Source: Escherichia coli
Lineage (GTDB): Bacteria > Pseudomonadota > Gammaproteobacteria > Enterobacterales > Enterobacteriaceae
Strand: one strand, 5' to 3'
NCBI RefSeq assembly: GCF_003334785.1
Contig: NZ_QOWV01000052.1
DNA: 3,108 nt
In this document: positions 2,411 through 3,108 of the stretch, piece by piece
How the letters are laid out: the number at the start of each line of letters is the position of its first letter
Numbering within the stretch: position 1 is the stretch's first letter
Position numbers and translations under genes: made by a program
Notes under the pieces: model-generated
The model's input: only the letters and a program-made list of their open reading frames with translations
Database searches by the model: none
What the model was told of the DNA's origin: nothing

Positions 2411-2644
2411 ATGAAAGGAAATGATCCAGTTGTTATTAATGGATATGGTTGTCCAGATTTGAGGTTTGTAGACAATTCAGATAGACTGTATATCATTGCC
2501 CATGGAAATACAGCCATTATTGGGGATGGCATGCATGGAACTAAAAAATTAAAGCCACATGAATTAGCCAAACTTTTATGTAAAGCAGGATTAACAAAAA
2601 ATTTTGTTGATGTGCGGCTTTTTTCTTGTGAGCTGGCCCCCTGA
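2411..2644 (+). pseudogene. 5' fragment of an enzyme-like gene (His-Gly motif protein), 3'-truncated by IS2-like insertion
   Basis: The ORF starts at the first ATG after the stop at 2387-2389 and encodes MKGNDPVVINGYGCPDLRFVDNSDRLYIIAHGN...HELAKLLCKAGL...FVDVRLFS. From ~2627-2629 the reading frame runs into the IS2-like left terminal repeat; the last codons (C-E-L-A-P) and the stop at 2642-2644 are IS-derived or junction-derived. Native coding sequence is therefore ~2411-2628 and the rest of the gene should lie beyond the IS, outside the window. Confidence 0.55.
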
Positions 2645-2669
2645 AATACCAGACAGTAGATGTCTCTTA
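2629..2669 (+). repeat. Left terminal inverted repeat (IRL) of the IS2-like element
   Basis: Collinear with the ~41-bp IS2 IRL, including the GGCCCCCTGAA core; the exact first base is uncertain by about 2 nt (TG at 2627-2628 or 2629-2630). Confidence 0.65.
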
Positions 2670-2994
2670 AAATAAGAGATAGGCTTGGATATATGTCTAA
2701 CACTAGTTCTAATTTTGAGATGGCTGGCGTTTTGTTAGGAAAAGAGGTGCGTAAACGTAAAACACCTCAGGAAAAAATCGCAATTATTCAACAGACTATG
2801 GAGCCGGGCATGACGGTGTCCCACGTGGCGCGTTTGCATGGAATTCAGCCCAGTCTGTTGTTTAAGTGGAAGAAACAATACCAGGAAGGAAGCCTCACTG
2901 CTGTGGCTGCCGGTGAAGACGTTGTTCCTGCTTCTGAACTGGCCGCTGCAATAAAGCAGATTAATCAGCTTCAGCGTTTACTGGGTAAGAAAAC
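2629..2994 (+). mobile_element. IS2-like element (IS3 family, IS2 group), 5' 366 bp only; interrupted at 2994/2995 by another IS
   Basis: 2629 onward aligns position-for-position with the IS2 left end as I remember it (here TGAGCTGGCCCCCTGAAATACCAGACA versus IS2 TAGACTGGCCCCCTGAATCTCCAGACA), followed by an InsC/OrfA homologue. Similarity to IS2 ends abruptly after CTGGGTAAGAAAAC at 2994. Sequence is related to but clearly not identical with canonical IS2. Confidence 0.75.
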
Positions 2995-3013
2995 TGAGGT
3001 GTACTGGCAATAG
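2720..3013 (+). pseudogene. IS2-like orfA (InsC-like helix-turn-helix transposase subunit), 3'-truncated and fused to foreign codons
   Basis: Translation [92 protein letters not shown] is collinear with IS2 InsC ([33 protein letters not shown]...[29 protein letters not shown]). Start ATG 2720 was chosen by this alignment; the in-frame ATGs at 2660 and 2693 lie inside the terminal repeat. The final codons EVYWQ and the stop (2996-3013) come from the inserted IS3-family terminus. The expected C-terminal ~30 aa and the orfA/orfB frameshift region are absent. Confidence 0.75.
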
Positions 3014-3034
3014 CGGACACTACCATTTGTCCTT
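2995..3034. repeat. Terminal inverted repeat of the IS3-family element (the right end in the element's own orientation)
   Basis: Begins with TG at the junction and contains GGCAATAGCGGACAC, similar to the IS3 terminal repeat core as remembered. The inner boundary is approximate; a T7 run (3033-3039) separates it from the OrfB stop codon. Confidence 0.5.
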
Positions 3035-3037
3035 TTT

Positions 3038-3108
3038 TTAAGCAGCCATCTGATGATATTTTTCCCTGAAGGCTGCCGGGGAGATATTCCCCAGACGAGA
3101 GTGACGAC
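3038..3108 (-). CDS. IS3-family transposase OrfB, C-terminal end (partial; 5' part lies beyond window end)
   Basis: Minus-strand translation of 3106 down to 3041 gives RHSRLGNISPAAFREKYHQMAA, followed by a TAA stop (complement of 3038-3040). R-H-S-x-L-G-x-x-S-P-x-x-F is the characteristic C-terminal motif of IS3-family OrfB transposases, and its position right next to a terminal repeat is as expected. Confidence 0.65.
   Translation of the reverse strand, partial: RHSRLGNISPAAFREKYHQMAA

Follow-up and report, generated by a model that had tools for sequence, protein, structure and literature searches.

Elements of the IS3 family move by an established copy-out/paste-in route that proceeds via a circular intermediate. 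IS600, a member of this family first described in Shigella sonnei, is 1264 bp long and duplicates 3 bp of its target. It is among the insertion sequences (IS) that have expanded in Shigella (PMC7373316). The length of the target duplication is conserved by subgroup within the IS3 family, the IS2 subgroup giving 5 bp, and the family has been contrasted, as 'conserved', with IS481, IS1202 and IS481EU, where discrete classes of duplication are found near 5, 15 and 25 bp (PMC10045372). ISEc48, the second element of the locus described here, is barely mentioned in the literature that we searched, and then only in passing.

By the window we mean the whole stretch of DNA that was analysed (3108 bases). 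It is 100% identical to positions 73288-76395 of the 94 kb E. coli plasmid pWP7-S17-ESBL-04_2 (NZ_AP022179.1) and essentially identical to the corresponding part of the FDAARGOS_1248 plasmid (L007). The surroundings were read from a 16.5 kb locus around the window in pWP7-S17-ESBL-04_2 (L001), whose coordinates minus 5401 give those of the window. The plasmid is of the IncF type and ETEC-like, with orphan type VI secretion genes beside a gene that we call gene 3. Read along L001, tssM (frameshifted) and tssH are separated by an IS fragment from three small genes, which encode a VasL-domain protein, a product that PGAP names 'kinesin' and a 77-aa hypothetical protein (gene 3). A cluster of IS fragments comes next; past it an IS66 element and a RelE toxin gene are both present as remnants, and then comes the autotransporter gene eatA. 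The VasL-domain protein (383 aa, window 467-1618) has only a weak TssA-like match (TIGR03362, E=2.4e-5). The 'kinesin' ORF (171 aa, window 1784-2299) matches no NCBIfam model and its name therefore looks unreliable; together with the VasL-domain gene it forms a pair of orphans adjoining the frameshifted tssM. At E<=1, no Rfam family was matched anywhere in the window. The features are collected in Table 1.

Table 1. Features of the window, and target duplications found at copies of ISEc48 elsewhere
Feature	Position	Strand	Remark
Second IS600, truncated; element 889-965 in window, 1-965 in plasmid	1..77	+	inverted relative to complete copy
Shared GTT site	window 77/78; L003 2994-2996; L008 1736-2993		tssH-vasL intergenic
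Gene 3 remnant, hypothetical protein	2411..2644	+	cut by ISEc48 left end at 2628/2629; last residues ELAP and stop from IS
ISEc48 (IS3 family, IS2-like), positions 1-366	2629..2994	+	left terminal repeat, leader, first 92 codons of orfA
ISEc48 left terminal inverted repeat TGAGCTGGCCCCCTGAAATACCAGACAG	2629..2656	+	IS2-type, resembles IS2 left repeat
Chimeric ORF	2720..3013	+	ISEc48 OrfA residues 1-92, then EVYWQ and stop from IS600 terminal repeat
Left copy of IS600 3 bp target-site duplication, AAC	2992..2994	.	right copy outside window, L001 9660-9662
IS600 right end, element positions 1264-1151	2995..3108	-	full 1264 bp element runs past window
IS600 right terminal inverted repeat TGAGGTGTACTGGCAATAGCGGACACT...	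2995..3021	-	imperfect inverted repeat with other end TGAGGTAGCCTGAGTTTAACGGACACT
3' end of IS600 orfAB	3038..3108	-	C-terminus ...RHSRLGNISPAAFREKYHQMAA and stop
ISEc48 duplication, L002			16 bp repeat
ISEc48 duplication, L010			15 bp repeat
ISEc48 duplication, L011			16 bp repeat; empty site verified
ISEc48 duplication, L013			15 bp repeat; one mismatch
ISEc48 duplication, L014			15 bp repeat; relative, 88.5% identical to ISEc48
ISEc48 duplication, L017			5 bp repeat
ISEc48 duplication, L018			15 bp repeat
ISEc48 duplication, L019			14 bp repeat; inserted into an IS2
ISEc48 duplication, L020			17 bp repeat
ISEc48 duplication, L021			15 bp repeat
ISEc48 duplication, L022			14 bp repeat
ISEc48 duplication, L023			15 bp repeat
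ISEc48 duplication, L024			15 bp repeat
ISEc48 duplication, L025			16 bp repeat

The names ISEc48 and IS600 are used here as PGAP labels combined with near-identity to copies so labelled. An intact, PGAP-named ISEc48 of 1336 bp (NZ_AP021946.1, L002) served as reference; the window segment is identical to it at 365 of 366 positions (99.7%, where we required more than 95% nucleotide identity over the retained part), the sole mismatch lying at 2664. Reverse-complemented, the right end of intact copies, TGTTCTTGCCCCCTTATTTCCAGACAG, matches the left repeat of the segment, TGAGCTGGCCCCCTGAAATACCAGACAG. The ORF starting at 2720 encodes an IS2-type OrfA, a helix-turn-helix regulator, and matches NF006928 ('IS2 repressor TnpA') over profile positions 4-91 of 121 with E=1.7e-42. 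The score of 144.8 bits falls below the 229-bit cut-off of this model because the ORF is truncated and comes from a divergent, different IS. The match means that the initial annotation, made from the sequence before any database search, was accurate in describing an IS2-like segment with an InsC-like ORF. PGAP places the start at 2720, in alignment with that of InsC; a longer ORF from 2660 is present too.

A complete ISEc48 would comprise both terminal repeats, the frameshift site and the DDE domain of orfB. The plasmid copy keeps only positions 1-366 and 364-666, lacks the right end as well as the catalytic domain of orfB, and is a remnant, not a functional member. Past position 666 the rest of the element is replaced by the 3' part of a different, unnamed IS3-family element (L001 9963-10450, downstream of the window), and ETEC plasmids have an unnamed element of that family to which this part is 96-98% identical. 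This fragment is none of IS2, ISEc48, IS600 or ISEc31. Where the unnamed element is complete, in ETEC plasmids, an AL1L frameshift pseudoknot is annotated in it.

When the window was searched against 5426 complete E. coli genomes, the megablast match broke exactly at 2994, and the end of IS600 was found from 2995 onwards. The initial annotation had let the IS2-like sequence run for 366 bp before a cut at 2994/2995, which is exact to the base. The different IS3-family element that it saw beyond the cut, in the opposite orientation, is IS600, whose transposase coding sequence lies on the minus strand. Read base by base, the left junction is ...GTAAGAAAAC/TGAGGTG and the right junction ...CTACCTCA/AACCATGGAAG, and uninterrupted ISEc48 reads GTAAGAAAACCATGGAAG at the target. 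Comparison of the junctions with this uninterrupted sequence indicates that IS600 duplicated AAC, and the 3 bp duplication flanking the complete element is within the 3-4 bp that had been expected. Past IS600, ISEc48 resumes at once, with reference positions 363-666 matching L001 9659-9962; the proposal that the second element had transposed into the orfA of the IS2-like one is thereby borne out. The target is seen uninterrupted in intact ISEc48 and in plasmid p2-S1-CAM-01-A (L004), which carries the same ISEc48 remnant with the site reading GGGTAAGAAAACCATAGAAG; it is uninterrupted too in plasmid pAA (LT719075, L008). Removal in silico of IS600 and one AAC gave a sequence that aligned without gaps over 1422 bp (98.3%) to p2-S1-CAM-01-A. 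The locus thus has what is required of nested transposition, namely a host in register on the far side, a target duplication and an empty site in relatives.

The full IS600 (L001 8396-9659) is 1264 bp long. It is 99.5% identical over positions 1-1264 to a copy annotated as IS600 on the Shigella sonnei plasmid NZ_CP023646.1, above the 95% nucleotide identity over the full 1264 bp to copies of that name that we took to establish membership. Its ends, TGAGGTGTACTGG... and TGAGGTAGCCTGAG..., have the form 5'-TG...CA-3' and make up imperfect terminal inverted repeats. The transposase is annotated as intact by PGAP, as a joined CDS with 'programmed frameshift' (L001 8439-9595, minus strand, WP_182913529.1), and its OrfB part reaches 347.7 bits with the model NF033516 (transpos_IS3), for which the cut-off is 160. 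The element therefore has the orfA-orfB arrangement, the programmed -1 frameshift and the DDE domain; only the last 22 codons fall within the window, where 3038-3106 on the minus strand translates to the OrfB C-terminus ...AAFREKYHQMAA and a stop. Since named mobile elements are matched at 99.5-100% identity along hundreds of bases, the pattern is not one of chance.

Three other origins of the junction were weighed. It might have been produced by recombination or by an IS-mediated rearrangement, that is by an inversion between the IS600 copies or by an adjacent deletion. Two identical, inverted IS600 copies do flank the cargo segment, and the region has seen several deletions (ISEc48 is truncated at 666 and the second IS600 at 965). 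An inversion or deletion endpoint would, however, part the flanks, whereas ISEc48 is contiguous, with matching AAC on both sides of the complete IS600, and on either side of the truncated IS600 lies contiguous sequence of the tssH-vasL intergenic target seen in plasmid pSTEC299_1; nor are the flanks of the two copies swapped relative to IS-free plasmids. We judge such an origin to be very improbable. Inversion between the IS600 copies and an origin as a composite transposon were specifically rejected, each copy having contiguous flanks. A false joining of repeated IS copies during assembly appears slightly less probable again. IS600 and ISEc48 are both multi-copy, two IS600 copies are on the plasmid itself and such repeats are a classic cause of misjoins, yet the structure is the same in two complete assemblies that were made independently and come from strains of different country and source. 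For the second of these, the FDAARGOS_1248 plasmid (USA, human), a gap-free alignment of 6509 bp that takes in the entire structure shows 99.95% identity; the correctness of the assembly rests on these two concordant finished sequences. A misjoin, moreover, would not give a precisely full-length IS600, a 3 bp duplication and ISEc48 in register. That 2629-3108 is one contiguous known hybrid IS and not two elements is scarcely credible, since, even if hybrid IS2/ISEc48-like elements seem to exist (L015, L016), intact ISEc48 copies run through the site without IS600, IS600 occurs on its own in 247 plasmids (at least 80% coverage) and the two have no blastn-detectable similarity.

The full-length IS600, the AAC repeat, the empty sites and the second assembly together argue for true transposition over an assembly artefact. 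We are accordingly highly confident that IS600 lies inside an ISEc48 remnant by true nested transposition, with the history proposed below. The nested insertion is of an already known kind, and represents ordinary IS accumulation on a virulence-type plasmid.

The chimeric ORF that had been noticed at the junction does exist, joining residues 1-92 of OrfA to five residues from the IS600 repeat. In the translation of an intact copy, uninterrupted ISEc48 OrfA goes on ...GKKTMEVEILKEAVEY past the point of fusion. ISEc48 was already immobile, and the consequence of the IS600 insertion is only a slightly different dead end. Gene 3 had been described as inactivated by IS insertion, and this is correct as far as it goes. 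The uninterrupted homologue in pSTEC299_1 (L003 5262-5825) is 187 aa long; homology to it breaks off at about residue 100, precisely where ISEc48 begins, and its distal 270 bp have no counterpart in the 16.5 kb of L001. There is in addition a second lesion near the 5' end, an in-frame stop close to the N-terminus of the homologue (window 2336-2410), on account of which the annotated ORF starts at a later ATG, at 2411. Gene 3 thus bears damage at its 5' end in addition to the cut made by ISEc48. NCBIfam holds no family for gene 3, either as the remnant or as the full-length homologue.

The truncated IS600 at the other side of the cargo segment (L001 4514-5478, positions 1-965) is 100% identical to the complete copy over 965 bp; a 25-aa fragment of it matches NF033516. 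As the best IS600 copies elsewhere are 99.2-99.5% identical, the two copies on the plasmid are sister copies. Their sequences suggest a local hop on the plasmid, and the donor of the nested IS600 was probably the sister copy, some 3 kb away on the same molecule. The two copies bracket three cargo genes. This truncated copy lies between tssH and vasL, directly after GTT, and its last 299 bp are deleted along with ~8 bp of duplicated target and flank. In pAA, ISEc31 (IS3 family, 1258 bp) is inserted after exactly the same GTT and is accompanied by a GTT duplication; ISEc31 and IS600 have no blastn similarity. The insertion of IS600 and of ISEc31 after one GTT is a genuine independent double hit, at the other end of the window from the nested insertion.

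The ISEc48::IS600 junction was found in two of the 5426 complete E. coli genomes and in two of 72,556 plasmids. Since ISEc48 sequence is present in 2167 genomes, the site is not a general hotspot for IS600, and the initial annotation went too far in calling it an insertion hotspot. The junction of ISEc48 with gene 3 (2628/2629) is common to five plasmids, only two of which have IS600 (L001, L007), and IS600 therefore came later. The extent of the ISEc48 remnant varies: positions 1-666 are kept in L001, L007 and L004, 1-411 in pAA (L008) and 1-227 in pNMBU-W12E19_01 (L009). One ancestral ISEc48 insertion, decayed to these three lengths, makes a small phylogenetic marker series. We propose that ISEc48 would first have inserted into gene 3, beside the orphan type VI secretion genes. 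This copy would then have lost its distal part, the break at 666 becoming joined, in this lineage, to the other IS3-family fragment. Finally, a complete IS600 would have integrated at ISEc48 positions 364-366 in one plasmid lineage only, duplicating AAC. Its route, going by what holds for the IS3 family, was presumably copy-out/paste-in through a circular intermediate and a short staggered cut. By this order ISEc48 was already dead when IS600 arrived. The locus records in what order insertion sequences struck and eroded a segment of orphan type VI secretion genes on a plasmid that carries eatA; the ISEc48::IS600 junction, seen in only two finished plasmids, is a lineage marker.

The initial annotation expected a duplication of ~5 bp for the IS2-like element. 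As the window copy of ISEc48 is without a right end, target duplications of this element were read, as exact direct repeats, immediately outside the conserved ends TGAGCTGG... and ...GCAAGAACA of intact copies. The duplication was 14-17 bp long in 13 of 14 copies and 5 bp in the remaining one (Table 1). The repeats vary in sequence from one site to another and are thus of target origin. An empty site reconstructed for L011, in which the 16-mer stands once, is 100% identical over all 400 bp to F-type plasmids, with 509 records at 99% identity or more. The same procedure gave 5 bp for the control, IS2A of K-12, and 3 bp each for IS600 and ISEc31. Three ISEc48-like loci with no flanking duplication (L012, L015 and L016) were taken to be rearranged or hybrid and do not count among the 14. 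In L015 the right end is of the IS2 type and in L016 the left end; recombination between IS2 and ISEc48-like elements may have produced these two. L019 is another nested case, an intact ISEc48 within an IS2 transposase gene on a Klebsiella plasmid. A search of species-representative genomes with a degenerate ISEc48-type left end gave 0 matches, and the sample of duplications was not enlarged. Our literature search on direct repeats in the IS2 group of the IS3 family found nothing.

It is possible, and we put this forward only tentatively, that ISEc48 and its 88.5% identical relative integrate with a stagger of 14-17 bp and rarely of 5 bp, the two classes lying about one helical turn apart. Mechanistically, the ~15 bp duplications suggest strand transfer at positions one helical turn further apart. 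If this is true, and is not already recorded in ISfinder, the stagger would be a new form of IS3-family target capture, and ISEc48 would be a tractable E. coli system for studying the control that DDE transposases exert over strand-transfer spacing. ISEc48 also serves as a warning to annotation tools that assume duplications of 3-5 bp for IS3-family elements.

Set against the described systems, the IS600 of this locus agrees with known IS600 in length, in its ends and imperfect repeats, in the frameshifted orfA/orfB and in the 3 bp duplication; it differs by a few private substitutions, which are common only to the second copy on the same plasmid. ISEc48 resembles IS2 in its IS2-type terminal repeats and its InsC-like OrfA (NF006928). 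The nucleotide identity to K-12 IS2 is, however, ~69% over ~1200 bp, and the duplications of ISEc48 are mostly 14-17 bp in length, in contrast to the 5 bp of IS2. In this last respect it is more like IS481, IS1202 and IS481EU, in that it seems to have two classes, of which that near 15 bp is dominant and that of 5 bp rare. As a nested structure, ISEc48::IS600 is similar to the arrays of Shigella pINV and of E. coli virulence plasmids, where successive IS hits fall into remnants and are accompanied by gene inactivation and deletions; it differs from those arrays in that the junction is limited to one plasmid lineage (2 records).
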